Shown one piece after another: positions 27,041 to 53,510 of a stretch of DNA of 64,000 nt; position 1 is the stretch's first letter, and each line of letters starts with the position of its first letter. The notes below the pieces were generated by a model, which ran no database searches, was not told the DNA's origin, and saw only the letters and a list, made by a program, of their open reading frames with translations. A program made the position numbers and the translations under genes. Source of the stretch: Chloroflexota bacterium (GTDB lineage: Bacteria; Chloroflexota; Limnocylindria; Limnocylindrales; CSP1-4); contig DAOTUU010000054.1 of the NCBI GenBank assembly GCA_034436555.1, forward strand, positions 94,793 to 158,792, given 5' to 3'.

Positions 27041-27077
27041 CGGCGGACGGACGGGCGGTCGGTGCCGCGCCGCGCGG

Positions 27078-28106: not shown

Positions 28107-28269
28107 CCCGGACGTGGCAGTGTGATCGCTCCCGCTCGGTCACCACGTGGCGACGGGGGATGACAGCGTTGACAGGCTCGACGCACGCCCTCTACGATGG
28201 GTCCGGACGGTTACCGGGACCGTCGCCGGGGCCCCATGTGACGGGCCGCATGATCGGAGGAGTGGAATC
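28107..28269. promoter_or_regulatory. Divergent promoter/operator region between lacI and the sugar ABC operon
   Basis: The gttgaca heptamer is iterated (gttgacatcgttgacatg; gacagcgttgacagg), and GGAGG precedes the GTG start of the substrate-binding-protein gene. Confidence 0.35.
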
Positions 28270-29598: not shown

Positions 29599-29622
29599 TC
29601 GGCGGCCGCTCCGGCGGTCCCC

Positions 29623-30552: not shown

Positions 30553-30562
30553 GCGACGTGGC

Positions 30563-31390: not shown

Positions 31391-31402
31391 GAAAGGACCA
31401 CG

Positions 31403-37512: not shown

Positions 37513-37696
37513 CCCGATCCCTCCCCGCGGCGGGCCCGAGCTCCCCGCGGCGGGCCCCATCGTCCCCTGCGGCGGACCCCATCGTCCCCGCGGCGGACCC
37601 GGCCCCTGCGGGACATCGCCACCGCGCCGTCCCGCGCGATGGACGCGACAGGGTACGCTTGCCTGGTCGCGCCCACGAGACGGGAGGATCAGCACC

Positions 37697-39589
37697 GTGA
37701 CGTCGACCCGGCGGATGACCGTCGCCCAGGCCGTGGTGGCGTTCCTGCGCGCCCAGCACATCGAGCGGGACGGTGAGCGCGGCAGATTCATCGCGGGCGT
37801 GTTCGGCATCTTCGGGCACGGCAACGTGGCGGGCCTGGGCGAGGCGTTGGAGGCGGAGGCCGCCGCCCACGGTCCGGACGCCCTGCGCTATCTCCAGGCG
37901 CGCAACGAGCAGGGCATGGTCCATGCCGCCGCCGCGTTCGCCAAGCAGCGCCGGCGCCTGCGGACGTTCGCGTGCACCACGTCGATCGGACCGGGCGCCA
38001 CGAACATGCTCACGGGCGCGGCCATGGCCACGGTCAACCGGCTGCCGGTGCTGCTGCTGCCCGGCGACCTGTTCGCGACTCGCCGCGTGATCCCGGTGCT
38101 CCAGCAGCTGGAGCGCCCGGAGTCGCAGAACCTGAGCGTGAACGACGCCTTCCGGCCGGTCAGTCGGTACTGGGACCGGATCGAGCGCCCGGAGCAGCTG
38201 CTGACCGCGCTGCCGGCGGCCTTCCGCGTGCTCACCTCGCCCGCGGAGACCGGCGCCGTGACCCTCGCGCTGCCCCAGGACGTCCAGGCGGAGGCGTTCG
38301 ACGTGCCCGGCCACCTGCTCGAGGAGCGTGTCTGGGTGGTCCCTCGACCACGACCGGACCGCGACCTGCTCGTCCGTGCGGCAGACCTCCTGGTCGGTGC
38401 GCGCCGTCCCATGATCGTGTGCGGCGGCGGCGTCCTGTATGCGCAGGCGGAGGACGAGCTCGCCGCGTTCGCCACCCGCTTCGGCATCCCCGTGACCGAG
38501 ACGCAGGCGGGCAAGGGCGCGCTGTCCTGGGACCACCCGCTGAACCTGGGCGCGCTGGGTGCCACGGGCGGATCGGCTGCGAACGCCGTGGCCCGCGACG
38601 CGGACCTCGTGCTGGCCATCGGCACCCGGCTGTCGGACTTCCCGACCGCGAGCTGGACCGCGTGGCAGGACCCCGGGGTGCGCTTCGTGGCGCTCAACGT
38701 GGCCGAGCTGGACGCGGCCAAGGCCCGCGCGCTGCCGCTGGTCGGCGATGCCCGCGTGACCCTCGAGGAGTTGTCGGAAGCCCTGGGTGCGCGTGCCTGG
38801 ACGGGCGTGCCCGCGGAGCGCCGGGCCCACCAGGAGCGCCTGCGCCAGGCGTGGAACGCCGAGGTGGACCGGGTGCTGCATCTCCGGACGCCGCGCCACG
38901 TGTCCCAGCCGGAGGCGATCCGGCTGACGATGGAGGCGGCCGGGGAGGACGGCATCGTGGTGTGCGCCGCGGGCTCCCTGCCGGGCGACCTGCACAAGCT
39001 GTGGCGGACGCCGCGTGCGGGTGGCTACCACCTGGAGTACGGCTACTCCACGATGGGCTACGAGGTGGCGGGCGGCATGGGCGTGGCCATGGCGGAGCCG
39101 GATCGGCGCGTGTTCGTGCTGGTGGGGGACGGGTCGTGGCTGATGCTCTCCGCGGAGATCGCGACGGCCGTCCAGGAGGCAATCCCGATGACCGTGGTGC
39201 TGCTGGACAACCACGGGTTCCGGTGCATCCGGAACCTGTCGGGCGCATGCGGCGGCGCGGGGACGTTCCAGGACTTCCGCCTGCGCGACCCCGCCACGGG
39301 CCAGCTCACCGGTGACGTGCTGCCCATCGACTTCGTGGCGAGTGCGCGCAGCCTGGGCGCCCACGTGATCCCGGCGCACGACCCCGAGGAGCTGGCCGCC
39401 GCGCTCGCGGCGTCCGGCCACATCCCCGGCCCGGTGGTCGTGATCACCGAGACCGACACGTCGGAGGAGGTGCCGGGATACGACGGCTGGTGGGACGTGC
39501 CGGTCGCGGCGGTGTCGGACAAGCCCGCCGTGCGTGAGGCGCACGCCGCGTACATCCGGGGAGTGGCCAGGAATCGACAGGCGCATTGA
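37697..39589 (+). CDS. iolD: 3D-(3,5/4)-trihydroxycyclohexane-1,2-dione acylhydrolase (IolD, ThDP-dependent)
   Basis: It is collinear with B. subtilis IolD (QGMVHAAAAFAKQ, PVSRYWDRIERPEQL, CAAGSLPGDLHKLW...YHLEYGYSTMGYEVAGGMG, DGWWDVPVAAVS). The GTG start has GGGAGG 9 nt upstream. Confidence 0.85.
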   Translation: MTSTRRMTVAQAVVAFLRAQHIERDGERGRFIAGVFGIFGHGNVAGLGEALEAEAAAHGPDALRYLQARNEQGMVHAAAAFAKQRRRLRTFACTTSIGPGATNMLTGAAMATVNRLPVLLLPGDLFATRRVIPVLQQLERPESQNLSVNDAFRPVSRYWDRIERPEQLLTALPAAFRVLTSPAETGAVTLALPQDVQAEAFDVPGHLLEERVWVVPRPRPDRDLLVRAADLLVGARRPMIVCGGGVLYAQAEDELAAFATRFGIPVTETQAGKGALSWDHPLNLGALGATGGSAANAVARDADLVLAIGTRLSDFPTASWTAWQDPGVRFVALNVAELDAAKARALPLVGDARVTLEELSEALGARAWTGVPAERRAHQERLRQAWNAEVDRVLHLRTPRHVSQPEAIRLTMEAAGEDGIVVCAAGSLPGDLHKLWRTPRAGGYHLEYGYSTMGYEVAGGMGVAMAEPDRRVFVLVGDGSWLMLSAEIATAVQEAIPMTVVLLDNHGFRCIRNLSGACGGAGTFQDFRLRDPATGQLTGDVLPIDFVASARSLGAHVIPAHDPEELAAALAASGHIPGPVVVITETDTSEEVPGYDGWWDVPVAAVSDKPAVREAHAAYIRGVARNRQAH

Positions 39590-39622
39590 CGGCGCGTCGA
39601 TGCCGGGATGGGAGGCGATGGG

Positions 39623-40462
39623 ATGAGCGATCGGATCCGCGCCGCGGGAGCCGCGGTCGCCCTCTCGGTGGCGGCGCTCTGCGCGGGTGGCGCGGTCGTG
39701 CTCGGCGCGGTGCCCATCGACTGTGACGCTCCGAATCTCGACGCGGTCGAGGCCCAGCTCACGATCGCGCGGGTCCACGGCATGGCGGGCGACAGCGATG
39801 GGGTGCGCGCCGCGATCGACGCCGCCCGGGCGGAGCTTGACGCGATCGCGCGGACCTGCTGGGGGCCCGTCCCCTCACCCGAGCCCTCGATCCCGATCGT
39901 GACGCTGGGCGGTTCGAGGACGATCGGCGGCCGGGCGCTCTCCTACCCCGCCGACCTCGTGGAGCTGGAGGATGGGTTGCTGCGCCCCGTCGACGACGGC
40001 GGCCTGCGCGCAGATGTCCTGACGCTGGGGGACTCCATCGCGGCGGCCGAGGTGATCGGCTCCGACCTCGACGAGCCGGTGCCCCCGGGATTCCGGGTCA
40101 TCAGCCTCGCGGTGGGCGATCCATCGGCGGTGCTCGCGACGGTGGGCACGACGGACCCCGAGGCGGAGACTCCGACCGATCCGGTCCGGGCGCTCGGCCA
40201 GCTCGTGGAGGCCATCGACGTGGACGACATCGACTTCGGCGACGTGGGTCCGTTCGTGTTCCCCGACGGCGCGTCCGGCGCGGCGGCGGACTTCACGGGA
40301 CTCGGCGAGGACCGGGCGGTCCTGCTGGATGGATCGTTCCTGGTGCGACCGATGCCCGACGGTGACTGGGCGCTCGGCGTGGCGCTTGCCGCGCCCGGCG
40401 GCATGGACCGGCTGCGAGCGGAGCTGGCCGCGACGCTCCTGTCGATCGGCCCCGAGGGCTGA
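39623..40462 (+). CDS. Hypothetical secreted protein (signal peptide, Asp/Gly/Ala-rich)
   Basis: A signal peptide is present (MSDRIRAAGAAVALSVAALCAGGAVVLGA), with GC3 bias. Confidence 0.55.
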   Translation: MSDRIRAAGAAVALSVAALCAGGAVVLGAVPIDCDAPNLDAVEAQLTIARVHGMAGDSDGVRAAIDAARAELDAIARTCWGPVPSPEPSIPIVTLGGSRTIGGRALSYPADLVELEDGLLRPVDDGGLRADVLTLGDSIAAAEVIGSDLDEPVPPGFRVISLAVGDPSAVLATVGTTDPEAETPTDPVRALGQLVEAIDVDDIDFGDVGPFVFPDGASGAAADFTGLGEDRAVLLDGSFLVRPMPDGDWALGVALAAPGGMDRLRAELAATLLSIGPEG

Positions 40463-40491
40463 GCCACGTTCGGCATCACGCCGGTCCCCTG

Positions 40492-41448
40492 ATGGGCGAC
40501 CTGCCTCGCGTCGGGTTCCAGGTCTGGGGGCAGTTCACGACCTGGCCGGCGCTGGCGGCGACAGCCAGGGACATCGAGCGCCTGGGCTTCGATTCGCTGT
40601 GGGCGAACGACCACCTGTTCCCGGCGGCGGGCGCCCAGGCGGCCACCCCGGACGGCCTGGACGGGCCGTTCCTGGAGGGCTGGATGACCGCCGCGGGCTT
40701 CGCGCTGGTGACGCGGCGGATCCCCGTGGGCGTGCTCGTGTCCGGTGCCGGCTACCGCAACCCCGGGCTGCTCCTGAAGCAGGCGACCGCGCTCGACCAT
40801 CTGTCGGGAGGTCGGGCCTGGCTGGGGCTGGGCGCGGGCTGGCACCAGCGCGACCATGCCGCGTTCGGGTTCGCGCTGCCCGCGCTGCGCGAGCGACTGG
40901 ACCGGTTCGACGAGCAGTCGGCCGCGGTCCGCGCCATGCTCGACGGTGGCCCGGTGTCCGTCGACGGCACCTGGGTGCGCCTGGACCGGGCGGTCAACGC
41001 ACCACCGCCCATCGGCCGCCTGCCACTGATGCTGGGCGGCTCCGGCGAGCAGCGGACGCTGCGCATCGTGGCGCGCGATGCGGACGCCTGGAACGGCGAG
41101 GGGACCCCGCAGGAGTGGGCCCGACGGTCAGCCATCCTGGATGGACACTGTCGTGCGACCGGACGGGACCCGGCGTCGATCGTGCGGACCGCGGGCGTGC
41201 CGCCGCTCCACGTCCGGTCGACGCGCGCGGAGGCGCGCCGGTCGCTGGCGGCGGTCCTGAGGGCGAACGGGATCGGCGCCGAGGAGGCGGCCGGGATCGC
41301 CGAGGCGGACCCGTTCGCGGGATCGCCGGACGACGTCCTGTCGGCGCTCGACGCGTGGGCGGCCGCCGGCGCCGCGGAGCTCATCTTCGACTGGCCGGCC
41401 CCGTTCGATGGCGAGTCCCTGGAGCGACTGGCCGGCGTCCGACGCTGA
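40492..41448 (+). CDS. LLM-class (luciferase-like) F420/flavin-dependent oxidoreductase
   Basis: It has a bacterial luciferase TIM-barrel pattern (FDSLWANDHL...GLGAGW). Confidence 0.8.
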   Translation: MGDLPRVGFQVWGQFTTWPALAATARDIERLGFDSLWANDHLFPAAGAQAATPDGLDGPFLEGWMTAAGFALVTRRIPVGVLVSGAGYRNPGLLLKQATALDHLSGGRAWLGLGAGWHQRDHAAFGFALPALRERLDRFDEQSAAVRAMLDGGPVSVDGTWVRLDRAVNAPPPIGRLPLMLGGSGEQRTLRIVARDADAWNGEGTPQEWARRSAILDGHCRATGRDPASIVRTAGVPPLHVRSTRAEARRSLAAVLRANGIGAEEAAGIAEADPFAGSPDDVLSALDAWAAAGAAELIFDWPAPFDGESLERLAGVRR

Positions 41449-41590
41449 CGCGCCGGCCGCATGCGCCAGGGCGCGCGGGACCCGGCCGACCGTTCCGGAC
41501 CGCCGCGACGCCTGCCGGCCCCGGGTCGGTCGGTCGGCGGGCGCCCTGCGCGCGCCCTGCGCGCGGGACCCTGCCGCCCGCCGGGACACG

Positions 41591-41650
41591 GTTGACGGCC
41601 ATGGTAGAGTGCTGCGTAATCGGTTGCATAAATCGGTTGCATGGAGTGGC
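41591..41650 (+). promoter_or_regulatory. Putative promoter/operator upstream of the DegT-family gene
   Basis: It contains TTGACG, TAGAGT/TAATCG and a 12-bp direct repeat aatcggttgcat x2 in a locally AT-richer stretch. The start of the real aminotransferase ORF follows GAGGAG. Confidence 0.35.
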
Positions 41651-41675
41651 GGGCCGCCAGCACGAGGAGCAGACG

Positions 41676-42908
41676 ATGCCGGGTCCGGGACTCGACCTGA
41701 TCGGCGAGGAGGAGCTCGCGGAGGTCGCCGACGTCATCCACGCACGCCATCTGAGCCGCTACGGCCCGGATGACGCGTCGTTCCCGGCGAAGGTGCGCCG
41801 GTTCGAGGAGGAGGTGGCGGCGCGCGCCGGGGTGACCCACGCGCTCGCCCTGAACGCAGGCACGAGCGCCCTCATGCTGGCGCTGATGGGGCTGGGTGTG
41901 GGTCCGGGGGATGAGGTCATCGTGCCCGGGTTCACGTTCGTGGCCACGCTCTCGTCGGTCATCTACGCGGGTGCCACGCCGGTCCTCGCGGAGGTGGACG
42001 AGACCCTGAACCTGGACCCGTCGGACGTGGAGGCGCGCATCACGCCCCGCACCCGGGCCATCCTGGTCGTCCACATGCTGGGCAATCCGGCGCGCCTCGC
42101 GGAGCTGAAGGCGGTCGCGGACCGCCACCGCGTCGCGCTCGTCGAGGATGCCGCGCAGGCGTTCGGAGCCACCTATCGTGGCGCCTGGGTGGGCGGCCAG
42201 GGCGCCGCGGGCGCGTACAGCTTCAACGAGTTCAAGACGATCACCTGTGGCGACGGCGGGATGCTCGTGACGAACGACGAGGCGCTCTACCGCCGCTGCT
42301 TCGCGATGCACGACCAGGGCCACAGCCCCAACCGCAGGGGGATCGAGGTGGGTCGCCGACCCATGCTCGGCATCAACCTCCGGATGACCGAGCTCGAGGG
42401 TGCCGTGCTCCTGGCGCAGCTGCGCAAGCTCGACCACATCCGGCGACACCTGACCGCGCAGCGCGACCTGGTGCGCTCGATCATCGGCCAGGTGCCGGGT
42501 GTGGGCTTCCGGACCCTGCCCGACCCTGATGGCGATCTCGCGACGCACCTGGTGGTGATGCTCCCCGACGCGTCGTCGGCGGCGGCGATCGCAGCGGAGA
42601 TCGGGGCGATCACCCTCGACCACTCGGGCTGGCACGTGTACAGCCACATGGAGCACTTCCTGGCACAGCGCACCATCACGGACCAGCGCTGCACCTGTGG
42701 CTGTGACCGCACCCACCCCGGGCGGGCCGAGTACCGTCCGGGCATGCTCCCGGCGACCGACGCGTTCCTGGCGCGCTCGATGAGCTTCGCGATCGGCGTC
42801 GTCGACCCGAACCTCGCCCCGTTCGGCCTGCGCATGCGCGATGGGTCGGATGTCGCGCGCGAGCGTGCGGAGCGGTTCGCGACCGTGGCCCGGTCGCACC
42901 TCGCCTGA
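41676..42908 (+). CDS. DegT/DnrJ/EryC1/StrS-family PLP-dependent aminotransferase (sugar/inosose aminotransferase-like)
   Basis: It has a PLP lysine in AYSFNEFKTITCGDGG and the type-I aminotransferase fold. The start is set at MPGPG with GAGGAG 6 nt upstream. Confidence 0.85.
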   Translation: MPGPGLDLIGEEELAEVADVIHARHLSRYGPDDASFPAKVRRFEEEVAARAGVTHALALNAGTSALMLALMGLGVGPGDEVIVPGFTFVATLSSVIYAGATPVLAEVDETLNLDPSDVEARITPRTRAILVVHMLGNPARLAELKAVADRHRVALVEDAAQAFGATYRGAWVGGQGAAGAYSFNEFKTITCGDGGMLVTNDEALYRRCFAMHDQGHSPNRRGIEVGRRPMLGINLRMTELEGAVLLAQLRKLDHIRRHLTAQRDLVRSIIGQVPGVGFRTLPDPDGDLATHLVVMLPDASSAAAIAAEIGAITLDHSGWHVYSHMEHFLAQRTITDQRCTCGCDRTHPGRAEYRPGMLPATDAFLARSMSFAIGVVDPNLAPFGLRMRDGSDVARERAERFATVARSHLA

Positions 42909-42910
42909 CG

Positions 42911-44035
42911 TTGGGGCGGATGCGGACGATGCGCGAGGGACCGCCCGCACGGCGTGTCACGCTCGCCGACGTGGCGGCGCGCGCGGGAGTCTCGCGGGCC
43001 ACCGCATCCCGGGCCCTCGTCGATGACGAGCGCATCAGCGCCGGCACGCGGGCCGTCGTCCAGGAGGCCGCCGAGGCGCTCAAGTACGTGCCCAACGCGG
43101 CGGCCCGCAGCCTCCGGCGACGGCGCACCGGCATCCTGGGCCTGCTGCTCGCGGACCTGGGCGACCCGGTCCACGGCCAGGTCGCAGCGGGCTTTGAGCA
43201 GGCCGCGGCCGCCGACGGCTACACCGTGGTCATCGTGGCCGCGTCCAACGTGCCGGACCACGAGCGCGCCGCCATCGACGTGTTCGTGGAGCACGCCACC
43301 GACGGCATCGCGCTCGTGTCCAGCGTGCTGGAGCCCGCCGAGGCGCGCGAGCGGGCGGGCCCGGGGCGCCCGGTCGTCATCGTCCAGCCCGACGCCCCCG
43401 GCATCCTCCGCGAGCAGGGCGCCCCTCCCGACGGGCTCATCCAGACCGACGATGTGGGTGGCGTGACCGCGGCCGCCCGGCATCTCGTCGAGACCGGGCA
43501 CCGCCGGGTGCTGTACCTGGGGGCCGGCGGCCGATCCTCGGATGAGGTGCGGCGCGAGGCGGCGTCCCGGGTGATCCGCGAGGCCGGACTGGAGCCGCTG
43601 TCCACGACGTCCCTGCCGGACGACGCGTGGCGCACTCCGACGCTGGTGGCGGACGCGGTGGCCCACCCGCTCCCCGATGCGGTGCTGTGCTACGACGACA
43701 AGCTCGCCCTGGCCCTGCTCGACGGCCTGCGTGCGCGGGGCCTGCGGGTGCCTCGGGACGTGTCCGTCGTGGGCTTCGACGACATCCCCTTCGCGGCGAT
43801 CTCCAACCCGCGGCTGACCACGGTGTCGACCCCCACCGACGAGCTGGGCAGGCTCGCCGCCCGGGGGCTCGTCCAGGCCATCCGCGACGGGCGCCTGCCG
43901 CCGGGACGGGTCCTGCCCACGCGGCTCGCGACGCGCGAGAGCGTGCGAACGCGAAACGCCGCGCACCGCGCGGACATCCCCCCGATGGACGCCGCGGTCG
44001 CGCCGAGCGAGGCGATCGCCGGGAGCGCCGGATGA
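42911..44035 (+). CDS. LacI-family transcriptional regulator
   Basis: It has an N-terminal HTH (TLADVAARAGVSRATASRAL) and a sugar-binding-type effector domain. Confidence 0.8.
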   Translation: MGRMRTMREGPPARRVTLADVAARAGVSRATASRALVDDERISAGTRAVVQEAAEALKYVPNAAARSLRRRRTGILGLLLADLGDPVHGQVAAGFEQAAAADGYTVVIVAASNVPDHERAAIDVFVEHATDGIALVSSVLEPAEARERAGPGRPVVIVQPDAPGILREQGAPPDGLIQTDDVGGVTAAARHLVETGHRRVLYLGAGGRSSDEVRREAASRVIREAGLEPLSTTSLPDDAWRTPTLVADAVAHPLPDAVLCYDDKLALALLDGLRARGLRVPRDVSVVGFDDIPFAAISNPRLTTVSTPTDELGRLAARGLVQAIRDGRLPPGRVLPTRLATRESVRTRNAAHRADIPPMDAAVAPSEAIAGSAG

Positions 44036-44090
44036 GCGCCGGGAGCGCCGGATGAGCGCCGGGAGCGCCGGGATGAGCGCCGGGATGAGC
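44018..44090. repeat. 20-bp tandem repeat (gagcgccgggagcgccggat, about 3 copies) at the lacI / ABC-ATPase junction
   Basis: It yields the iterated MSAGSAGMSAGMSTGM N-terminus and makes the ATPase start ambiguous. Confidence 0.6.
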
Positions 44091-45209
44091 ACCGGGATGC
44101 CCGCCATCGAGCTGGTCGCCGCCACCAAGCGATACGGCGACGCGGTCGCCCTCGACGCGGTGTCCCTGGCCATCGAGTCGGGGGAGTTCTTCTGCCTCCT
44201 GGGTCCGTCGGGCTGCGGCAAGACCACGACCCTCAACCTCATCGGCGGATTCCTGCCGCTCACCTCCGGCGAGCTGCGCATCGAGGGTCGCGTGGTCAAC
44301 GACCTGCCGCCCCATCGGCGCAACGTCAACACCGTGTTCCAGAGCTACGCCCTGTTCCCGCACATGACGGTCGCGGACAACGTCGCGTTCGGGCTGCGCA
44401 TGGAGGGCCTGGACCGACGGGAGGTGTCCTCACGGGTGGGCGAGTACCTCTCGCTCGTCGGCCTCGAGGGGTACGCGGACCGCCACCCCGGCCAGCTCTC
44501 CGGCGGCCAGCAGCAGCGGGTGGCGCTCGCCCGGGCCCTCGCCAAGCGCCCCGCGGTGCTGCTGCTCGATGAACCCCTGGGCGCGCTCGACCTCAAGCTC
44601 CGGCGGGCGATGCAGCTGGAGCTGTCGCGCATCCACCGCCAGGTCGGCACCACGTTCGTGTTCGTGACCCACGACCAGGAGGAGGCGCTGTCGATGGCGA
44701 CCCGCATCGCCGTGATGTCCGGCGGGCGCGTGGTCCAGGCCGGCACGCCCCAGGAGATCTACCTGCGCCCCCGGACCCGGTTCGTGGCCGACTTCATCGG
44801 CGAATCGAACTTCCTCGACGGCACGGTCGCGGGCGGCGATGGCGACGCGGGGCTCCAGCTCCCGGACGGGCAGCGCCTGCCGGTGCCCGCCGGCACGGCG
44901 CCCGGTCCCGCCACGCTGATGGTGCGGCCGGAATCGGTGGAGCTGCGCGCGCCCGATGCCGGGGCACCGATCCACCTGCGCGGTCGCGTGCGCCACGCGG
45001 CGTTCATGGGAACCCACACCCGGATCACGGTCGACACGACGGCGGGCGCCCTCGTCGTGCTGCGACATCACCACAGCGGCGTCGGGGAGGTCGCACCCCT
45101 GGAGCGACCGGGACAGGAGGCCGGCATCTGGTGGGCAGCTGAGACAGCCACGATCCTGGAGCGAGACAGTGGAGGAGGCATCGATGGACCCGATCAGGCA
45201 GCTACTTGA
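44052..45209 (+). CDS. ABC transporter ATP-binding protein (PotA/spermidine-putrescine-type, with TOBE C-terminal domain)
   Basis: It has Walker A GPSGCGKTT, LSGGQQQRVALARAL and Walker B LLLDEPLGALD. The likely true start is MPAIELV (44097). Confidence 0.8.
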   Translation: MSAGSAGMSAGMSTGMPAIELVAATKRYGDAVALDAVSLAIESGEFFCLLGPSGCGKTTTLNLIGGFLPLTSGELRIEGRVVNDLPPHRRNVNTVFQSYALFPHMTVADNVAFGLRMEGLDRREVSSRVGEYLSLVGLEGYADRHPGQLSGGQQQRVALARALAKRPAVLLLDEPLGALDLKLRRAMQLELSRIHRQVGTTFVFVTHDQEEALSMATRIAVMSGGRVVQAGTPQEIYLRPRTRFVADFIGESNFLDGTVAGGDGDAGLQLPDGQRLPVPAGTAPGPATLMVRPESVELRAPDAGAPIHLRGRVRHAAFMGTHTRITVDTTAGALVVLRHHHSGVGEVAPLERPGQEAGIWWAAETATILERDSGGGIDGPDQAAT

Positions 45210-46290
45210 GAACCAGCTGACGCGGCGCAGGTTCCTGCAGGCGTCGGCCGCGACCGCGGGCGCGATGGCCATGGGCGGCCACCTCGCCACACGGGTGCGC
45301 GCCCAGGGCGGCACCTTCAACTGGATGACCTGGAGCGACCACTTCTACCAGGAGCAGCTGGACGCGATCAAGGAATCGTCCGGCATCGTGCCCAGCATCA
45401 GCGAGCTGGCCGCCAACGAGGACGGCTTCGCCAAGCTCCAGCAGGGCGGCTCCGGCCTGGACATGATCTCGGGCGACGCGCTGTGGGTGCCCGCGTACCG
45501 TCAGAACGGGCTCATCGACGCCTGGGACATCAACGAGCTGGAGGTCGCCAAGACCCTCTACCCGGTCGCCCGCGAGTTCCAGATCTGGACCACTCCGGAG
45601 GGCTACCTCGGCTACCCGTTCGGCTGGTCGCCGGTCCTCATCTACTACAACAAGGAGCACGTGACGCCCACGGACTCCTATGAGATCCTGCTCGACCCGG
45701 CGTTCGCGGGCAAGATCATCATGGAGAACCAGCCCACCGACGTGGTGGCCCACATGGGCATCCTGGCGGGTGCCGCGGATCCCTACAACATGACCGACGA
45801 CGAGCTGGCCGCCGCCAAGGACCTGCTCTGGAAGCTCAAGCCGAACATCCTCCGATTCGCCCAGCAGAACACCGACTCGGTCAACGCGCTGGCCACCGGC
45901 GAGGCGTGGCTGGCGACCGTCAACCTGGGCACCGAGGAGCGCGTCAAGGAGGCTGGCGGACCGGACATCGGGGTGATCACGCCCAAGGAGGGCACGATCG
46001 GCTGGATGGACGCCGAGATGATCGTGACCGGCGGCGCCAACACCGCGCTCATCCGGCCGTTCCTGGAGCTGGCACAGCAGCCGGAGCACATCGCGGAGAA
46101 CTTCCTGCGCTACGGCCGGCCGCTGTTCAACGAGGGCGCCTACAAGATCCTCGTGGACAACGGTCACCAGGAACGCGCTGACCGCTATCTGTTCAACAAG
46201 CCGGAGACGGTCCTGACGATGGCCCTCAAGGGTCCCGGACAGTCCACCGGCGGCGCCATCGAGGCGTTCAACGAGGTGTTCGCCGCCTAG
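45184..46290 (+). CDS. ABC transporter substrate-binding protein (PotD/PotF-like) with Tat signal
   Basis: It has the twin-arginine motif TRRRFLQASAATAGAMA and the PotD fold. The substrate is probably not a polyamine. Confidence 0.8.
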   Translation: MDPIRQLLENQLTRRRFLQASAATAGAMAMGGHLATRVRAQGGTFNWMTWSDHFYQEQLDAIKESSGIVPSISELAANEDGFAKLQQGGSGLDMISGDALWVPAYRQNGLIDAWDINELEVAKTLYPVAREFQIWTTPEGYLGYPFGWSPVLIYYNKEHVTPTDSYEILLDPAFAGKIIMENQPTDVVAHMGILAGAADPYNMTDDELAAAKDLLWKLKPNILRFAQQNTDSVNALATGEAWLATVNLGTEERVKEAGGPDIGVITPKEGTIGWMDAEMIVTGGANTALIRPFLELAQQPEHIAENFLRYGRPLFNEGAYKILVDNGHQERADRYLFNKPETVLTMALKGPGQSTGGAIEAFNEVFAA

Positions 46291-46314
46291 GCGCATCCCG
46301 GAGTCCGGGAAGCC

Positions 46315-47235
46315 ATGAGCGGAACCGGGGCCGGTCCGGCGTCCACGCCGGTGCCGGCCGCCTCCGCCCGCGCCCTGCCGGGCCGCTCGTACGGGCGGCT
46401 CCTGCCGGCGCTGCCCGCGGGCATGGTGCTGATCGTCCTGTTCCTGGGCTCGATGGTGTTCATGACGCTGTTCAGCTTCTGGCAGGTGAACTCGTCGTTC
46501 GTCATCGAGCCCGACTGGACCCTCGAGAACTACACCCGATTCTTCACGTCCGCGGCGTACCTCCGGACGTTCGGCAAGACGCTGGTCATGGCGGGCGTGG
46601 TGACCCTGACCTGCCTGTCCCTGGCCATCCCGTTCTGCTACTTCCTGGTGCGCTACCTGACCCCCCGCTGGGCGCGCATCGTGCTGCTCGCGGTGATCAT
46701 CCCGTTCTGGACCAGCTACCTCCTCCGGGTGTACGCGTGGCAGGCGATCCTGGGCGAGTTCGGGGCGCTCAACCAGGCACTCATGTGGCTGGGGGTCATC
46801 GACGAGCCGTCGCGCCTGCTGGTCTACAACGACCTGGGCGTGTTCATCGTGCTCAGCTACGTCCAGTTCCCGTTCGCGGCGCTCGCCATCTACGCGTCGA
46901 TGGAGCGTTTCGACTTCAGCCAGTTCCTGGCCGCCCAGGACCTGGGCGCGCGCCCCGACCAGGCCTTCCGGCGCATCCTGCTGCCGCAGCTGCGGCCCGG
47001 CATCATCACGGCCTGCATCTTCGTGTCCGTGCCCATCCTGGGCGAGTTCCTCACGCCCACCATCGTGGGCGGGGTCCAGGGCGTGCTCATCGCCAACCTC
47101 GTGGTCAACTTCTTCAAGGGTGCCCAGATCCCCCAGGGCGCGGCGATGGCCATCATCATCGCGGCGTTCGTCACGGCTGTGCTCATCGTGTTCCGGCGCT
47201 ACCTGCGGGTGGAGGACGTGGTCACCCGTGGCTGA
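46315..47235 (+). CDS. ABC transporter permease (PotB-like)
   Basis: It has six transmembrane segments and a BPD-transporter fold. Confidence 0.8.
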   Translation: MSGTGAGPASTPVPAASARALPGRSYGRLLPALPAGMVLIVLFLGSMVFMTLFSFWQVNSSFVIEPDWTLENYTRFFTSAAYLRTFGKTLVMAGVVTLTCLSLAIPFCYFLVRYLTPRWARIVLLAVIIPFWTSYLLRVYAWQAILGEFGALNQALMWLGVIDEPSRLLVYNDLGVFIVLSYVQFPFAALAIYASMERFDFSQFLAAQDLGARPDQAFRRILLPQLRPGIITACIFVSVPILGEFLTPTIVGGVQGVLIANLVVNFFKGAQIPQGAAMAIIIAAFVTAVLIVFRRYLRVEDVVTRG

Positions 47236-48121
47236 GCGTGTCGACCCCATCGCGATGATGCCGGTGAGCCCGCACGCGCGGCTCACGCGTCGCCTGCTGT
47301 GGCTGCTGGCGGCGGTCATCCTGGGCGTGCTGTATCTGCCCATCGCGTTCCTGGTGCTGCTCTCGTTCAACGAGCCGCGCAACGTGGGCCTGCCTATCAC
47401 CGGGCTGACGCTCCACTGGTACCAGACCGCCCTGGGCAACCGGCTGCTGCTCGACGCGGTCTGGAACTCCGTCGTCGTCGCGCTCGTCGTGGCGGTCCTC
47501 GCCACGATCATCGGCACGATGGCGGCCTTCCCGCTCGTGCGCGGCCACCTGCGCTACCCGGGTGCGACGCGCATCGTGGCCACGCTGCCGATCATGCTGC
47601 CGGGGTTCCTGCTGGGCCTCGGCGTGCTCATCTTCCTGCGCCGCGTGCTGGACATGCAGCTGTCACTGCTCACGGTCGTGGCCGGGCACCTGGTGTTCAC
47701 GGTGCCGTTCGTGATCCTCATCGTGGCGGCTCGGCTCCAGGGCTTCGACCGACGACTCGAATGGGCGGCCGCGGACCTGGGCGCGGACCCCCGCCAGACC
47801 GTCCGCCACATCATCCTGCCGCTCATCTGGCCCGCCATCCTCGCGGGCGCCCTCATCAGCGTGACGCTGTCCATCGATGAGTTCGTGATCACGTTCTTCA
47901 CGGTGGGCCCGCAGCTGACGCTGCCCATCTACATCTACACCCAGATCAAGTTCGGCGTGACCCCGGAGGTCAACGCGATCGCGACCCTCATGCTGGGCGC
48001 GACGCTCGTCCTCCTGGTCGCGGGCGGCGTGGCGCTGTCCCTCGGACGGCGCGTGCGTCGGCCCCGGGCGGGCCCGGCCGGACGTCCTGGTTCCACGCAC
48101 GGAGGGGGGTCTCGAACATGA
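47228..48121 (+). CDS. ABC transporter permease (PotC-like)
   Basis: It has six transmembrane segments. The GTG start overlaps the upstream stop (GTGGCTGA), and an alternative ATG is at 47255. Confidence 0.75.
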   Translation: MAERVDPIAMMPVSPHARLTRRLLWLLAAVILGVLYLPIAFLVLLSFNEPRNVGLPITGLTLHWYQTALGNRLLLDAVWNSVVVALVVAVLATIIGTMAAFPLVRGHLRYPGATRIVATLPIMLPGFLLGLGVLIFLRRVLDMQLSLLTVVAGHLVFTVPFVILIVAARLQGFDRRLEWAAADLGADPRQTVRHIILPLIWPAILAGALISVTLSIDEFVITFFTVGPQLTLPIYIYTQIKFGVTPEVNAIATLMLGATLVLLVAGGVALSLGRRVRRPRAGPAGRPGSTHGGGSRT

Positions 48122-49068
48122 CCAGCGGACGCACGGCGGATCTGCCGCGGATGCGCATCGCGAATGCGCCCTGCTCGTTCGGGGTGGACGAGGTGCTCAA
48201 GGACGACGCCTGGATGCCCGGACCGGACGAGATGCTCGACTGGATGCTGGGCATCGGCTACCTGGGCACGGAGCTGGGCCCGCCGGGGTTCCTGGGAGCG
48301 GGCGCGGCGGCGCGGGAGCGTCTCGAGCGACGCGGGCTGGCGCTCGTCGGGGCGTTCCTGCCGCAGCACTTCTCGCGCGCCGACCGCGCCCCGGCCGATC
48401 GCGAGTGGCTGCGCACGCAGCTGGGGCTGCTCCGGGAGGCGACCCCCGCGGGCTCCGACCCGTTCGCGGTCCTGTGCGAGGCGATCGACGAGCCCGAGCG
48501 CCTGCGCTGGACCGGACGCGCGGAGCGCCATCCGGAGGCGCAGCTGGACGCGGCCCGCTTCGCGACGATGATGGACAACCTGCATCGGGCCGGGGAGCTG
48601 GTCCGCTCCATGGGGTTCCGGGCGGTCATCCATCCCCACGCGGGCACCTACATCGAATCGGATGCGGAGATCGCGCGCATGGTGGACGCGCTCGACGCCT
48701 CGCTCGTGGGACTGTGCCTGGACACCGGGCACTTCCGCTACGGCGGCGCCATCCCGGCCCAGCGCATCCGGGACTACCGGTCGGTCATCCACCACGTGCA
48801 CCTCAAGGACTGCGACCGGTCGATCCTGGACGGGGTCATCGCCCAGGACGGGGACCTGTCGATGGCGCTCCAGCGGGGTGTGTTCGCGCCGCTGGGGCGA
48901 GGGAGCGCCGACATCGCGGCGGTCGTGGAGGCGCTCCACGAGATCGGATACGCGGGGTGGCTGGTGGTGGAGCAGGACCAGTTCCTGGACGCCGGGGTGA
49001 CCCGCGCCGACCTCGTCGGCGGGCAGCGCCGCAACCTCGCCTACCTGCACGGCCTGGGGCTGGCCTGA
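48118..49068 (+). CDS. Xylose-isomerase-like TIM-barrel enzyme (sugar phosphate isomerase/epimerase; IolE/MocC-like candidate inosose dehydratase/isomerase)
   Basis: The AP-endonuclease-2 TIM barrel is present (HPHAGTYIE...CLDTGH...HVHLKD...WLVVEQD). Its ATG overlaps the permease stop. Confidence 0.8.
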   Translation: MTSGRTADLPRMRIANAPCSFGVDEVLKDDAWMPGPDEMLDWMLGIGYLGTELGPPGFLGAGAAARERLERRGLALVGAFLPQHFSRADRAPADREWLRTQLGLLREATPAGSDPFAVLCEAIDEPERLRWTGRAERHPEAQLDAARFATMMDNLHRAGELVRSMGFRAVIHPHAGTYIESDAEIARMVDALDASLVGLCLDTGHFRYGGAIPAQRIRDYRSVIHHVHLKDCDRSILDGVIAQDGDLSMALQRGVFAPLGRGSADIAAVVEALHEIGYAGWLVVEQDQFLDAGVTRADLVGGQRRNLAYLHGLGLA

Positions 49069-49084
49069 AGGGAGGTCGGCCATC

Positions 49085-50011
49085 ATGAAGCTGGCGCTCG
49101 ATCCGCACATGATCCGCCACCTGCCGCTGCCCGACGTGGTGCGGGCGGTGGCGGACCTGGGATACGAACACCTGGAGCTGACGCCCCGCCCGGACTTCCT
49201 GCCGTTCTACATCCACCCGCGCGCGGATGACGCGGTCGTGTCGGCGTTCAGGGCGGCGCTCGCGGAGACGGGCGTCAGCATGGTCGCGGCGTCCTTCGGG
49301 GACTACCGCTGGTCCTCCCCGGACGAGGCGCTCCGGACCGCGGCGGTGCGCTACTGGCTGGCGGCCCTGGACGTGCTCGCGGAGGTGGGCTGCACCACCG
49401 TCATGACCGAGCTGGGCGGCGACCCTCGGACCCCCGAGGCGTGTGAGGCCGCGCTCTGGCGGTCGCTGGAGGATCTGCTGCCGCGCCATGAGCAGCTGGG
49501 CATCGGGATGAACATCCAGGTGCACCCGTTCAACTTCCTGGTGAGCAACACCGCGGGTGTGGACCTGGTGCGCGGCATCCGACACCCGCTGGTGGGCTAC
49601 TGCTACGTGGCGGCGCACACGTTCCACCTGGGCGACGATGTGGTGGAGATGGTGCGGTACGCGGGGCCGGACCTGCGGCACGTGCTCATCGCGGACAGCG
49701 GCGACCATCGCGCGTCCTCGGGGCTGCGGTTCCTGGTCAATCCGCATGGCTCCCCGGTCACGGTCCACCAGCACCTCGCCATCGGTCGGGGTGACGTGGA
49801 CTTCCGGGCGCTGTTCCGGGCGCTGCACGAGGTCGGATTCGACGGCATCCTCACCTCCAACGTGTACGGCGAGGAGGAGCGGGCGATGGAGGTCTATGCG
49901 GCGGACCGGGCCGCCGTGCTGGGATTGATGGCGGAGGCCGCCGGAGGCGGTGGGGGAGGCGCGCACGCCGGTGGGGGCGAGGGCGCCGGACGTGACGGGG
50001 GAGGCGCCTGA
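49085..50011 (+). CDS. Xylose-isomerase-like TIM-barrel enzyme (second paralogue) with Gly-rich tail
   Basis: It has the same fold (HLELTP...TELGG...HLGDD) and a C-terminal GGGGGGAHAGGGEGAG tail. Confidence 0.8.
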   Translation: MKLALDPHMIRHLPLPDVVRAVADLGYEHLELTPRPDFLPFYIHPRADDAVVSAFRAALAETGVSMVAASFGDYRWSSPDEALRTAAVRYWLAALDVLAEVGCTTVMTELGGDPRTPEACEAALWRSLEDLLPRHEQLGIGMNIQVHPFNFLVSNTAGVDLVRGIRHPLVGYCYVAAHTFHLGDDVVEMVRYAGPDLRHVLIADSGDHRASSGLRFLVNPHGSPVTVHQHLAIGRGDVDFRALFRALHEVGFDGILTSNVYGEEERAMEVYAADRAAVLGLMAEAAGGGGGGAHAGGGEGAGRDGGGA

Positions 50012-50012
50012 G

Positions 50013-51017
50013 ATGCGTGCCGTGGTGTTCGCGGGAGACGGCCGGATGGTCCTGGAGGACCGTCCATCGCCCCAGGTCACGCTGCCCGATGACGTGCTGG
50101 TCGCGGTGGAGGCGTGCGGCATCTGCGGCACCGACGTCCAGATCCTCAACGTGCCGCCGGGCCATCCGGCCACGCCCGGCACGATCATGGGCCACGAGTT
50201 CGTGGGTCGCGTGGAGGCGGTGGGACCCGCCGCCGACCCCGCGCTGGTCGGGACGCGCGTGGTCGTGGACCCGGATCCCAAGTGCGGCGCGTGCCCATCC
50301 TGCCGCGCCGGCCGCCCCGCGACGTGTTCCAACGTGGTCGCGCTGGGGATCTTCCGAGACGGGGCCCTGGCGTCGCACGTGGTCGCGCCGGCGTCGGCGT
50401 GTCATCCCCTGAGGGACGGCGTGCCCAGCGAGATCGCCGCGCTCGTCGAGCCGCTCGCATGCGTCATGAACGGCACCGGGCGCGCCGCGGTCCGACCGGG
50501 GGAGAGCGCGGTGGTGTTCGGCGCAGGGGCGATCGGGTGCCTGTTCACGGCGGTCCTCGCGGCATCCGGAGCGCGGCCCGTGATCGTGGTGGAGCCGCGG
50601 CCGGAGCGCGCGCCGGTGGCACTCGCCCTGGGCGCGACAGCGGTGGTCACGCCCGACGACCTCACGCAGCGCCGCGCGGAGCTGCTGCCGACCGGTGCGG
50701 ACGTGGTCGTGGACGCGGTTGGTTCCGTGCTGGACCGGTGCATCGACGTCGCGGCGCAGAGCGGCCGGCTGGTCATCTTCGGCATGAACGACAACGCCCG
50801 GCCGTCCATCCGCCAGGTGGACATCACCCTGAAGGGCCTCGCGATCCTGGGCTCCTACATCACCGACTTCACGTTCCCGGCCGCCATCCGCTTCGTGGAG
50901 GCGGGACTGGTGGACCTGACTCCGATGATCAGCGCGATGCTGCCGCTCGAACGGACGGCGGAGGGCATCGCCCTGCTGCGCGCCGGGACCGCCACGAAGG
51001 TGGTCATCACGCCCTGA
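50013..51017 (+). CDS. Zn-dependent medium-chain alcohol dehydrogenase (sorbitol/threonine-dehydrogenase-like)
   Basis: It has a catalytic Zn site (CGICGTD...GHEFVG), a structural Zn site (CxxCxxC...C) and a Rossmann motif GAGAIG. Confidence 0.85.
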   Translation: MRAVVFAGDGRMVLEDRPSPQVTLPDDVLVAVEACGICGTDVQILNVPPGHPATPGTIMGHEFVGRVEAVGPAADPALVGTRVVVDPDPKCGACPSCRAGRPATCSNVVALGIFRDGALASHVVAPASACHPLRDGVPSEIAALVEPLACVMNGTGRAAVRPGESAVVFGAGAIGCLFTAVLAASGARPVIVVEPRPERAPVALALGATAVVTPDDLTQRRAELLPTGADVVVDAVGSVLDRCIDVAAQSGRLVIFGMNDNARPSIRQVDITLKGLAILGSYITDFTFPAAIRFVEAGLVDLTPMISAMLPLERTAEGIALLRAGTATKVVITP

Positions 51018-52867: not shown

Positions 52868-53039
52868 CCGTCCCTCCTCGCCCCCAGCGCCACTCGTTGC
52901 AGGGGGCATGGTGCCAGCGTCGCCGCACGCGCGCACGCCCGTCGCGCCGGACCCGGGTCCGGTCGTCGGTGATGCGGTCAGGGCCGGCCGCTCCCGCGGT
53001 GCCGCTCTGATCGTCCTGTGTGCGCCGGCGCCGGGCCGG

Positions 53040-53460
53040 TCGCCCGCGGTGCGGGGGACGAACCACCGGGCGGTCGCCGGTGCCCCGCGCCCCGGTCCAC
53101 CCGCCGGTCGGTGCTCCCCATGCACCGATCGGCCGCCGGGACGTCGGTCGGTGCACCCGGCGCACCGTTCGACCGCCGGCACCTCCCCCGGCCGCCCGGT
53201 GGTGCACCGGGTGGGCCAGGCGCGGAGGACGGGCCAGGGCGGAGCGCGGGCAAGAGCGCGGGCAAGAGCGCGGGCCGGGCGCGGTGCGCGGGCCGGGAGC
53301 GCGCGCCCGCGGCGTCGGTCATCTGATGACGAACCGTCATGGCGGGACCCCACCTCCAGCCCGGCGCACGCCCCCCGGCGCACGCCTTCCGGAACGCCCG
53401 CCGGCGCACGCCCCCCGGCGCACGCCCCCCGGCGCACGCCCGCCAGCCGGCGGGACCGAC
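53040..53460. repeat. Repeat-rich GC intergenic region (ccggcgcacgcccc x5; gggcaagagcgc x2; other short iterated motifs)
   Basis: It lies between the sulP start and iolB and generates spurious ORFs on both strands. Confidence 0.5.
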
Positions 53461-53510
53461 GCGCCATCACACCCCCCAGCGACTACGCTGGCGGGACACG
53501 GAGGTCGCCC

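Follow-up and report, generated by a model that had tools for sequence, protein, structure and literature searches.

The described systems that come closest to the locus presented here are the canonical iol operon for inositol catabolism (iolABCDEFGHIJ in Bacillus subtilis, with an actinobacterial form in Amycolatopsis) and the rhizopine genes of Sinorhizobium meliloti L5-30 (mocCABRDEF and MosB). A third precedent is sulfoquinovose breakdown, where the sulfo-TAL and sulfo-TK routes use cleavage by a transaldolase (TAL) or a split transketolase (TK) instead of a kinase plus an aldolase. A large survey of iol genes took IolBCDE as its core and makes no mention of transaldolase or transketolase enzymes (PMC9430895). 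In rhizopine synthesis, IolG makes scyllo-inosose, and it was shown experimentally that this ketone is transaminated by MosB, a DegT-family scyllo-inosose:glutamate aminotransferase that acts biosynthetically and together with IolG; the moc genes further include MocB, a putative substrate-binding protein of an ATP-binding cassette (ABC) transporter, and the regulator MocR (PMC6668481). The locus described here lies in a stretch of 64,000 nucleotides from a Chloroflexota contig (DAOTUU010000054.1), called the window in the following. An earlier note on this DNA had read the genes between positions 37697 and 51017 as a candidate catabolic cluster for inosamine-type aminocyclitols. The cluster is very probably a real, conserved and LacI-controlled cyclitol catabolic system. 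As to its most likely substrate, the best inference is an inosamine-type aminocyclitol, e.g. scyllo-inosamine or a related (di)aminocyclitol.

Since the window has a G+C content of about 73%, its genes were called by third-position GC (GC3), stop-to-stop frames and the resulting translations. Twelve co-directional genes on the plus strand were found in this way, where the earlier note had counted thirteen. They form two blocks. The first consists of iolD, a gene for a hypothetical protein and a luciferase-like (LLM) oxidoreductase gene, while the second runs from an aminotransferase over LacI, a PotABCD-like importer, an IolE-like and an IolH-like TIM barrel to a zinc-dependent alcohol dehydrogenase (ADH). 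The inter-gene spacing is, in order, 18, 29, 227, 2, 16, -26, 24, 19, -4, 16 and 1 nt. The short or overlapping junctions reported earlier are thus found everywhere except at one place: a spacer of 227 bp (41449-41675) divides the cluster in two, and all other junctions range from -26 to 29 nt. The starts of four genes (those of IolD, the solute-binding protein, the TIM barrel TIMb and IolB) coincide with gene calls in public collections.

The two enzymes of the ring-opening route were identified at equivalog level. IolD scores 854 bits with TIGR04377 (equivalog cutoff 715), contains PF02776, PF00205 and PF02775, and is 53% identical to IolD of the canonical Amycolatopsis operon. IolB is encoded 2.5 kb beyond the cluster, as the earlier note had said, and reaches 283 bits with TIGR04378 (equivalog cutoff 205) and 284 bits with PF04962 (KduI/IolB fold). 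Pfam and NCBIfam scans were run on 41 GC3-supported open reading frames (ORFs) across the window; a few small ORFs and a long plus-strand ORF at 56.8-61.3 kb were left out. None of iolG, iolC, iolJ (or a Cgl0159-type gene), iolA and transketolase was found among the scanned ORFs, and tblastn of the window with IolG-like and transketolase queries gave no match. The claim that IolD stands here without iolG, iolC, iolJ and iolA was therefore upheld, and the joint presence of these four genes with iolBDE, by which a canonical iol operon is recognized, was not seen in these scans of the 64 kb.

One argument for a single system is conserved gene order. In what follows, labels such as L001 or L087 denote the related loci used for comparison. 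A scan anchored on the aminotransferase, with one genome per species, yielded 39 loci with full-length orthologues, in which IolD (13 loci), a PotA-like ATPase (13), LacI (11), the binding protein (10) and IolB (7) recur. A second survey was anchored on the binding protein in metagenome contigs. Nearly all contigs of sufficient length show the order LacI-PotA-binding protein-PotB-PotC-(LLM)-ADH-IolE-like, often with the aminotransferase directly upstream of LacI and with IolB, IolD, IolG-like dehydrogenases and a split transketolase nearby. Overall, the LacI-importer-ADH-IolE-like core recurs in dozens of Chloroflexota and Actinomycetota contigs, accompanied by the same or a class-III aminotransferase, LLM, IolD, IolB and IolG-like dehydrogenases. 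The genes are arranged in various ways. In L087/L088, whose aminotransferase is 85% identical, the order is IolD, LLM, aminotransferase, LacI, PotABCD, ADH, TIM, TIM. The layout downstream of the cluster (importer, ADH, TIM, SulP, IolB, TAL) is repeated in L089-L091 and L166. The Chloroflexota contig L004 carries LLM, an IolG-like dehydrogenase, an IolH-like TIM barrel and an 858-aa protein, and on the divergent arm IolD, split transketolase, IolB, aminotransferase, LacI, PotA and the binding protein. IolB is found inside or beside the importer operon in L104, L114, L116, L132, L134, L166 and L168. The comparison of gene neighborhoods that the earlier note had proposed thus finds the arrangement conserved in soil Actinomycetota and Chloroflexota. 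This synteny of aminotransferase, LacI, PotABCD, ADH and TIM barrels with IolD, IolB and LLM, together with a shared operator, bears out its view of the cluster as one functional system, not a chance juxtaposition.

In about 20 related loci, a protein of about 860 aa is encoded divergently from potA under the same operator (e.g. L004:2533-5106, minus strand, and L134:6177-8765, minus strand). Its C-terminal half matches the CehA/McbA (PHP-like) metallohydrolase family NF038032 at 141 bits. For the N-terminal part of about 470 aa no family match was found, and the sequence search gave no solved relative.

The repressor contains PF00356 (the N-terminal helix-turn-helix) and PF13377, which places it in the LacI/GalR family; its public gene call has 368 aa. 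In related loci, its orthologues (50-77% identity) are encoded right after the aminotransferase or ahead of potA. Within the 227-bp gap there is a single A+T-rich patch, and it holds a tandem 12-nt repeat. Two 14-mers, CGTAATCGGTTGCA at 41615 and ATAAATCGGTTGCA at 41628, lie there 13 bp apart and 35-60 nt upstream of the aminotransferase start, and nowhere else in the cluster is the LacI-family consensus TGNAANCGNTTNCA matched. The scan was controlled internally: beside the other LacI gene of the window, in that gene's own intergenic region, it picked out different operators. The earlier note had suggested LacI binding in two regions. One of them (41591-41650) contains the two tandem predicted operators (41615-41641); the other (44035-44100) lacks an operator-like site and contains a short tandem repeat where LacI ends and potA begins.

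The same kind of site was found across phyla. An orthologous site, TGCAATCGGTTGCA, stands upstream of the aminotransferase gene in L087, L004, L035, L099-L106 and others, and the palindromic operator TGCAAYCGRTTGCA precedes aminotransferase, LacI, importer and iolD genes. A near-perfect palindrome, TGCAA[T/C]CG[G/A]TTGCA, is also present where potA and the 860-aa gene diverge. The related loci, 1.86 Mb in total, contain 71 sites with at most 2 mismatches, where about 12 would be expected by a rough estimate that assumes uniform base composition. Of these, 60 are located no more than 300 bp upstream of a cluster gene (metallohydrolase 23, aminotransferase 20, LacI 14, potA 13, iolD 7). In L087 the site is found upstream of both iolD and the aminotransferase gene, and in L167 a site of this type lies between the IolD operon and the TAL-IolB operon. 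The predicted operator is thus backed by conservation across phyla, and LacI would be the protein that binds it.

Short G+C-rich tandem repeats are found in the window at 37521-37611 (upstream of iolD) and 52868-53510 (between the SulP gene and iolB), with CCCCGCGGCGGGCCC occurring four times at a spacing of about 21 nt plus several direct repeats of 12-40 nt. Because the region upstream of iolD in L087 carries a LacI operator instead, the repeats may have displaced such an operator here.

The aminotransferase belongs to the DegT/DnrJ/EryC1/StrS family (PF01041, 280 bits; gathering score 19.8) and reached no NCBIfam equivalog (e.g. ArnB: 180 bits vs 631). By far its closest solved relative is KdnA (5k8b, E 1e-79, 272 bits, residues 4-374), whereas NDP-sugar enzymes and the solved inosose aminotransferases score 126-192 bits. 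The substrate of KdnA is a free sugar, not an NDP-sugar. Lys187, located in SFNEFKTITCGDGG, is invariant in 18 orthologues and aligns with the KdnA lysine in the same motif; it is taken as the lysine that would bind pyridoxal phosphate (PLP). The family is highly conserved across phyla (410 aa, 70-85% identity among the best 120 matches, whose named sources are Chloroflexota and Limnocylindrales metagenome-assembled genomes). Among the examined neighbors of homologues with at least 60% identity no polysaccharide-biosynthesis genes were found, and in many of these loci there are genes of catabolism and transport. It takes a drop to 35-42% identity before polysaccharide, nonribosomal peptide synthetase (NRPS) or other biosynthetic surroundings are met. 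A tblastn search of plasmids gave only relatives at 35-45%, of which the two annotated contexts are biosynthetic (radical-SAM/heptose and polysaccharide/NRPS) and uninformative. Orthologues at 47-57% identity in Terriglobia, Spirochaetota and Asgard archaea stand outside any iol context, and all that their neighborhoods share is GFO dehydrogenases, TIM barrels and sugar-type transporters.

Within the related loci, the DegT orthologue lies immediately upstream of LacI in L099-L108. Where it is absent (L116, L128, L134), a class-III aminotransferase is found at the end of the operon, in L116 and L128 beside a GFO dehydrogenase; a more distant DegT protein occurs in L128, L129 and L142-L145. The transamination step looks integral to the system. 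The aminotransferase gene often adjoins GFO-family dehydrogenases, of which those scanned (L004, L035, L038) score 308-345 bits against an IolG cutoff of 355. On account of these adjacent IolG-like dehydrogenases, the MosB precedent and the free-sugar substrate of KdnA, the enzyme probably acts on an inosose. The neighboring dehydrogenases and MosB form the chief argument, a circumstantial one, for an inosamine/inosose step.

All proteins of the importer resemble PotABCD and remain under the equivalog level. The ATPase scores 359 bits with the PotA model (vs 482), the permeases 172 bits with PotB (vs 348) and 197 bits with PotC (vs 326), and the binding protein 62 bits with PotD (vs 582) and 50 bits with PotF (vs 636). 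The binding protein carries a twin-arginine (Tat) signal (TIGR01409, 21.5 bits vs 16.7), and its best match in the PDB has an E value of 3e-19. In the alignment to PotD of Escherichia coli, W34, W255 and D257 are kept, T35 is replaced by Ser, and E36 and E171 by Asp. Non-conservative replacements are found at 5 of the 11 PotD ligand positions (Y37 to H, S83 to D, Y85 to L, D168 to Q and W229 to N). Three carboxylates and two tryptophans are therewith kept at positions that contact the amines of spermidine in PotD. Nine pocket positions are near-invariant among 67 orthologues (W50, D52, H53, D98, Q183, D/E186, N247, W/F274 and D276), independently of whether an aminotransferase gene lies nearby. 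From these residues the pocket would fit a cationic but polar ligand, and the nearest relatives of the transporter components are importers of amines and aminophosphonates rather than of sugars. A tandem repeat (GAGCGCCGGGA/T-type units) spans window positions 44020-44100, across the LacI stop and the first potA-like codons; it gives several in-frame ATG codons, so that the true potA start is uncertain.

The two TIM barrels had both been described earlier as IolE/MocC-like. This holds for the first one, which is to be regarded as IolE-like and as a putative rather than a demonstrated IolE: it scores 138 bits with TIGR04379 (equivalog 290), matches solved IolE structures (9zmu, E 6.6e-17; 3cny, E 1e-14) and is 30% identical to canonical actinobacterial IolE. 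Its orthologues (55-76% identity) directly follow the ADH gene in most importer loci. The second barrel belongs instead to the IolH family by its relatives, being 53% identical over its full length to the gene at the IolH position of the canonical Amycolatopsis operon; its homologues carry the JGI name IolH, and the PDB search gave no close solved structure. The zinc-dependent dehydrogenase of the medium-chain dehydrogenase/reductase (MDR) type has IolM scyllo-inosose 3-dehydrogenase (193 bits vs 450) and L-threonine 3-dehydrogenase (172 bits) as its top NCBIfam matches, and 4ej6 (E 1.5e-45) and Tdh (E 9e-43) as its PDB matches. Orthologues (62-87% identity) follow potC in nearly all importer loci.

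Two further proteins had been set aside as extras. One of them, the LLM oxidoreductase (PF00296, 129 bits), is probably F420-dependent, judging from its 207 bits with the F420-LLM subfamily TIGR03560, just below the cutoff of 231. It has turned out to be a recurrent core member, and in 13 loci its orthologues (49-67% identity) either separate potC from the ADH gene or adjoin the cluster (L004, L006, L018, L032, L092, L114, L116, L124, L126, L130, L132, L134, L135). The other, the secreted hypothetical protein of 284 aa, is indeed an accessory and appears to be lineage-specific. It has no Pfam or NCBIfam match; its sole homologue (38-40% identity) was found in the close relatives L087/L088, after the TIM genes and not after iolD, and it is absent from all other related loci.

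The lower part of the pathway is probably supplied by a gene that the earlier note had overlooked, a transaldolase-like (TAL-like) gene beside iolB. Its product scores 128 bits with PF00923 (gathering 27) and stays far below the housekeeping actinobacterial tal model TIGR00876 (75 bits vs 234). The motifs VVKIPAT, which we take to be the Schiff-base lysine motif, and INCTVSFS are present, and a weak similarity to BmSF-TAL was detected (E about 1e-6). The family shows 67-85% identity among the best 120 matches. In all contexts examined, the TAL-like gene lies beside iolB or inside the operon: it adjoins iolB in the window, L089-L091, L005, L166, L167 and L168 (where the order is TAL-IolB-DegT), and directly follows the IolE-like gene in L134/L135. 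It is with iolB, and not with pentose-phosphate genes, that the gene is consistently paired. L167 combines TAL-IolB with a LacI/ribose-type ABC/IolG/IolE/IolD cluster and has no PfkB kinase or aldolase and no aminotransferase. In other genomes a split transketolase is found, between iolD and iolB in L001, L004 and L035 and beside iolB in L114 and L116; a few members of the regulon family carry a PfkB kinase. By analogy to the sulfoquinovose routes, the TAL-like enzyme, or the split transketolase in other genomes, probably replaces IolC and IolJ. The proposed substrate, 2-deoxy-5-keto-gluconate, has a fructose-like stereochemistry at its keto end and an anionic group at the place of the phosphate of fructose-6-phosphate; in the transketolase variant it would be cleaved by transketolase. 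A search of the available literature library for transaldolase or transketolase in inositol breakdown, for inosamine with IolD and for aminocyclitol degradation found no published description.

From these components the following pathway can be proposed. The aminocyclitol would be imported by the Tat-exported binding protein of the PotD fold and the PotA/B/C-like ABC transporter, whose family is clear and whose substrate is predicted. The KdnA-like aminotransferase would strip the amino group, generating an inosose. Oxidation or epimerization of ring hydroxyls may be performed by the MDR dehydrogenase and the F420-type LLM oxidoreductase, in place of the IolG of related loci. Subsequently, the IolE-like barrel would dehydrate the inosose to trihydroxycyclohexane-1,2-dione, with an auxiliary role for the IolH-family barrel. 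IolD, assigned at equivalog level like IolB, would then open the ring to 5-deoxy-glucuronate, which IolB would isomerize to 2-deoxy-5-keto-gluconate. In the last step, if the sulfo-TAL/sulfo-TK analogy holds, the TAL-like enzyme would move a dihydroxyacetone unit to an acceptor (e.g. glyceraldehyde-3-phosphate) and release malonate semialdehyde, replacing the ATP-dependent IolC kinase and the IolJ aldolase. The whole would be repressed by LacI through the tandem TGCAAYCGRTTGCA-type operators upstream of the aminotransferase gene. For this complete model, a LacI-repressed regulon for an imported cyclitol that is handled through its amino group and ends in a TAL-like lower branch, we see about an even chance. 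The broader proposal of a widespread undescribed pathway in soil Chloroflexota and Actinomycetota, joining aminocyclitol entry (the PotD-fold importer plus a KdnA-like or class-III aminotransferase) and an ATP-independent lower branch in one LacI regulon with TGCAAYCGRTTGCA, is more tentative and falls clearly short of even.

Several observations weigh against the aminocyclitol model. The solved inosose aminotransferases score only 126-158 bits against the window enzyme (272 for KdnA), and KdnA acts on a terminal aldehyde, not on a ring ketone. Within range, a DegT orthologue is missing from about half of the importer loci. The Asp, Trp, His, Asn and Gln residues of the binding-protein pocket would also suit a neutral polyol. 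IolA, the enzyme for malonate semialdehyde, was not among the scanned ORFs of the window. No operator is detectable in the window upstream of iolD or near iolB and the TAL-like gene. Direct control by LacI is for this reason proposed only for the block from the aminotransferase to the ADH, and regulon membership of iolD and iolB/TAL follows from sites in relatives such as L087 and L167. Finally, a search of the window with a hidden Markov model (HMM) of the 860-aa family found nothing; since this metallohydrolase sits under the same operator in related loci, the natural substrate there may be a conjugate that needs hydrolysis.

The amino group is the point at which a first alternative departs. 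The locus could be a variant regulon for neutral cyclitols (myo-, scyllo- or D-chiro-inositol, deoxy-inositols such as quercitol, or O-methyl-inositols), with a PotD-fold protein that binds polyols, the MDR and LLM enzymes in place of IolG, and an aminotransferase that serves a side branch, e.g. the interconversion of inosose and inosamine. IolD, IolB, the IolE-like and the IolH-family proteins are, after all, classical inositol genes, IolG-like dehydrogenases are common in related loci, several importer loci lack a DegT orthologue within reach, and the closest TAL-IolB relative, L167, has an ordinary ribose-type inositol transporter and no aminotransferase; the pocket residues, too, are typical of sugar binders as well. 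However, most of the long importer loci carry an aminotransferase of one or another class, the DegT gene stands first in the operator-controlled operon, and the transporter parts are nearest to amine and aminophosphonate importers rather than sugar importers, which makes this account rather unlikely. The aminotransferase might also work at the bottom of the pathway and convert a semialdehyde (malonate semialdehyde in the transaldolase variant, malate semialdehyde in the transketolase variant) to beta-alanine or 4-amino-3-hydroxybutyrate, or the reverse. KdnA, its closest solved relative over the full length, transaminates a terminal aldehyde, the DegT gene of L168 immediately follows TAL-IolB, and no IolA was found among the scanned ORFs of the window. 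Class-III aminotransferases include beta-alanine:pyruvate and GABA transaminases, and it is this class that seems to replace DegT in some loci. A pathway for the breakdown of carbon compounds would, however, not end productively in beta-alanine, the amine-type importer would be left unexplained, and the aminotransferase often stands beside IolG-like dehydrogenases, the makers of ring ketones. We consider a role at this position improbable.

An aminocyclitol could also be the product instead of the substrate, with inositol converted over inosose to inosamine as in rhizopine or aminoglycoside biosynthesis. The combination of a DegT aminotransferase with an inositol-type dehydrogenase is that of 2-deoxystreptamine synthesis. 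The rhizopine synthesis pair is made up in the same way (PMC6668481). It is catabolism, however, that is typically marked by ring-opening enzymes such as IolD and IolB, by import through an exported binding protein and by a LacI repressor. Among the window genes, the Pfam and NCBIfam scans detected no glycosyltransferase, kinase, amidinotransferase or resistance gene; a biosynthetic cluster is very improbable. The idea of a chance juxtaposition, in which a polyamine importer, a cell-wall amino-sugar aminotransferase and remnants of an inositol operon ended up side by side, is largely refuted and hardly tenable. It could draw on the gap between the blocks, the lack of a detected operator upstream of iolD and the absence of canonical iolG, iolC, iolJ and iolA from the window scans. 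The gene set nevertheless recurs in two phyla in many arrangements and has a conserved operator common to its genes. According to the earlier note, such a patchwork would be indicated by an aminotransferase of a cell-wall sugar clade or a binding protein that groups with characterized polyamine binders. Neither was found: the former is closest to KdnA, approaches no cell-wall equivalog and has catabolic neighbors, with no cell-wall genes seen beside it at 60% identity or more and biosynthetic contexts only at 35-42%, and the latter lies far below the PotD and PotF cutoffs. The aminocyclitol model thus remains the preferred one.

The features of the cluster and its surroundings are collected in Table 1.

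Table 1. Position and assignment of the genes and predicted operators in and beside the cluster (window coordinates).
Feature	Position	Strand	Basis or remark
IolD, thiamine diphosphate (ThDP)-dependent 3D-(3,5/4)-trihydroxycyclohexane-1,2-dione hydrolase, 630 aa	37697..39589	+	TIGR04377 equivalog
Hypothetical protein, 284 aa, N-terminal hydrophobic segment	39608..40462	+	no family match
Luciferase-like (LLM) oxidoreductase, 318 aa	40492..41448	+	PF00296
Two tandem putative LacI-type operators	41615..41641	.	12-nt direct repeat, LacI-family consensus
DegT/DnrJ/EryC1/StrS-family PLP aminotransferase, KdnA-like, 410 aa	41676..42908	+	PF01041
LacI-family repressor (start possibly 42929)	42911..44035	+	PF00356 + PF13377
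PotA-like ABC ATPase with TOBE_2 domain	44052..45209	+	PF00005 + PF08402
Tat-signal solute-binding protein, distantly PotD/PotF-like, 368 aa	45184..46290	+	PF13416/PF13343, TIGR01409
PotB-like ABC permease	46315..47235	+	PF00528
PotC-like ABC permease (start possibly 47228)	47255..48121	+	PF00528
IolE-like xylose-isomerase-like TIM barrel, putative inosose dehydratase, 316 aa	48118..49068	+	PF01261
IolH-family xylose-isomerase-like TIM barrel, 308 aa	49085..50011	+	PF01261, 135 bits
Zn-dependent MDR dehydrogenase, 334 aa	50013..51017	+	PF08240 + PF00107
SulP-family anion permease with STAS domain	51125-52867	-	between cluster and iolB/TAL
IolB, 5-deoxy-glucuronate isomerase, 279 aa	53511..54350	+	TIGR04378 equivalog, PF04962
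Divergent transaldolase/FSA-family protein, 375 aa, tail-to-tail with iolB	54361..55488	-	PF00923
Castor/Pollux-type ion-channel homologue with RCK domains	55791-57701	-	beside TAL-like gene

Scans for expression signals and RNA families gave little. Between 37.2 and 56 kb no consensus promoter was found, and the terminator scan of the same region returned two chance-level sites, both intragenic (44163-44184 and 45655-45669), and none in the intergenic gaps. A hairpin after the LLM gene was considered as a terminator and rejected, as its folding is no better than that of shuffled sequence (z -0.23). In the Rfam scan of 36.0-56.5 kb no family reached its gathering score.

As to the neighboring genes, the SulP permease keeps its position between the cluster and iolB/TAL in L087, L089-L091 and L166. 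The Castor/Pollux-type neighbor of the TAL-like gene is also present in L089 and is probably unrelated to the pathway. Elsewhere in the window, a second LacI-family gene (27081-28106, minus strand) has two operator-like palindromes of its own, TGACATCGTTGACA and TGACAGCGTTGACA (28083 and 28161), of which one overlaps its start codon and the other lies in the spacer between the divergent genes. Opposite to it, a sugar ABC transporter (28126-31390) and then an 827-aa protein without family match (31403-33886) are encoded, and on its other side lie a GH1 glycosidase (24627-26102) and a DUF4380 protein. The region 24627-33886 looks like a separate glycoside-utilization locus. The 827-aa protein was considered as a member of the 860-aa family and rejected, as the family HMM finds nothing in the window.

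Two of the related loci show variant entry genes. In the close relative L091 (1-247, 362-1396), a 390-aa MDR dehydrogenase and not an aminotransferase is found upstream of the importer's LacI. The identities to the window are 89% for IolB and 87% for ADH, but only 32% for LacI and 52% for the binding protein, and L091 may represent a paralogous system that is entered by another step. In L092, a gamma-glutamyltranspeptidase gene (17542-19488, minus strand) stands right after the IolE-like gene, with no aminotransferase within 10 kb, a possible sign of a gamma-glutamylated amine in some of the variants.

Inositols and their derivatives are major carbon sources in soil and plants. Genome surveys that recognize inositol use by IolBCDE (PMC9430895) would presumably miss clusters without IolC, since these fall outside a core defined in this way. 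If the proposed pathway is true, a transaldolase- or transketolase-based lower branch, parallel to that of sulfoquinovose, would be added to the textbook pathway, and a very conserved DegT aminotransferase family, currently annotated as a dTDP-sugar enzyme, would receive a catabolic role. It would also provide the first genetic handle on the consumption of aminocyclitols by bacteria outside the rhizobia, with a bearing on rhizopine-based plant-microbe engineering and on the fate of aminoglycoside cores in soil. A new inducible switch could be made from the conserved operator and its repressor.

In comparison to the canonical iol operon, the locus shares IolD and IolB at equivalog level, the IolH-family barrel and an IolE-like barrel, and it shares a LacI-family repressor with the actinobacterial form of the operon (Amycolatopsis, L163). 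It differs in that the window scans contain no IolG, IolC (PfkB), IolJ/Cgl0159-type aldolase, IolA or MFS-type IolT; instead, a PotABCD-type importer, a DegT aminotransferase, an MDR dehydrogenase, an LLM oxidoreductase and a transaldolase-like enzyme are found, and the IolE-like protein is far from canonical IolE and under its equivalog cutoff. With the Thermotoga maritima pathway (IolG/IolM/IolN/IolO) it has in common an MDR enzyme whose best family match is IolM and a barrel weakly similar to IolO (23 bits vs 300), but the presence of IolD and IolB, which define the classical ring-opening route, sets it apart.

The rhizopine system resembles the locus in the proposed inosamine/inosose chemistry and in the combination of a dehydrogenase with a TIM-barrel protein. 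On the moc side, the binding protein MocB is of the ribose type, the regulator MocR is of the GntR type, and MocDE is a Rieske-type component. The present locus has a binding protein of the PotD fold and LacI as its regulator; the Pfam and NCBIfam scans of the cluster found neither a Peripla_BP_4 transporter nor a GntR/MocR regulator or a Rieske protein, so that by its components it is not a moc cluster. The importer itself matches PotABCD and PotFGHI of E. coli in having a TOBE-domain ATPase, two permeases and a cluster-D binding protein; unlike in these polyamine systems, all four proteins lie under the equivalog cutoffs and the genomic context is cyclitol catabolism. The aminotransferase aligns over its full length with KdnA of Shewanella oneidensis (KdnA/KdnB), has its lysine in the same motif, and KdnA likewise offers a free-sugar substrate. 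KdnA is biosynthetic, however (lipopolysaccharide; 8-amino-3,8-dideoxy-octulosonate), whereas the window enzyme is found in a catabolic context among inositol-type dehydrogenases. As for the lower branch, the likeness to the sulfo-TAL and sulfo-TK pathways would consist in the cleavage of a six-carbon ketose-like acid by a transaldolase or a split transketolase, and both alternatives occur within the regulon family. The donor would be 2-deoxy-5-keto-gluconate, a carboxylate, and not sulfofructose, and the TAL-like form of about 370 aa is a divergent one.

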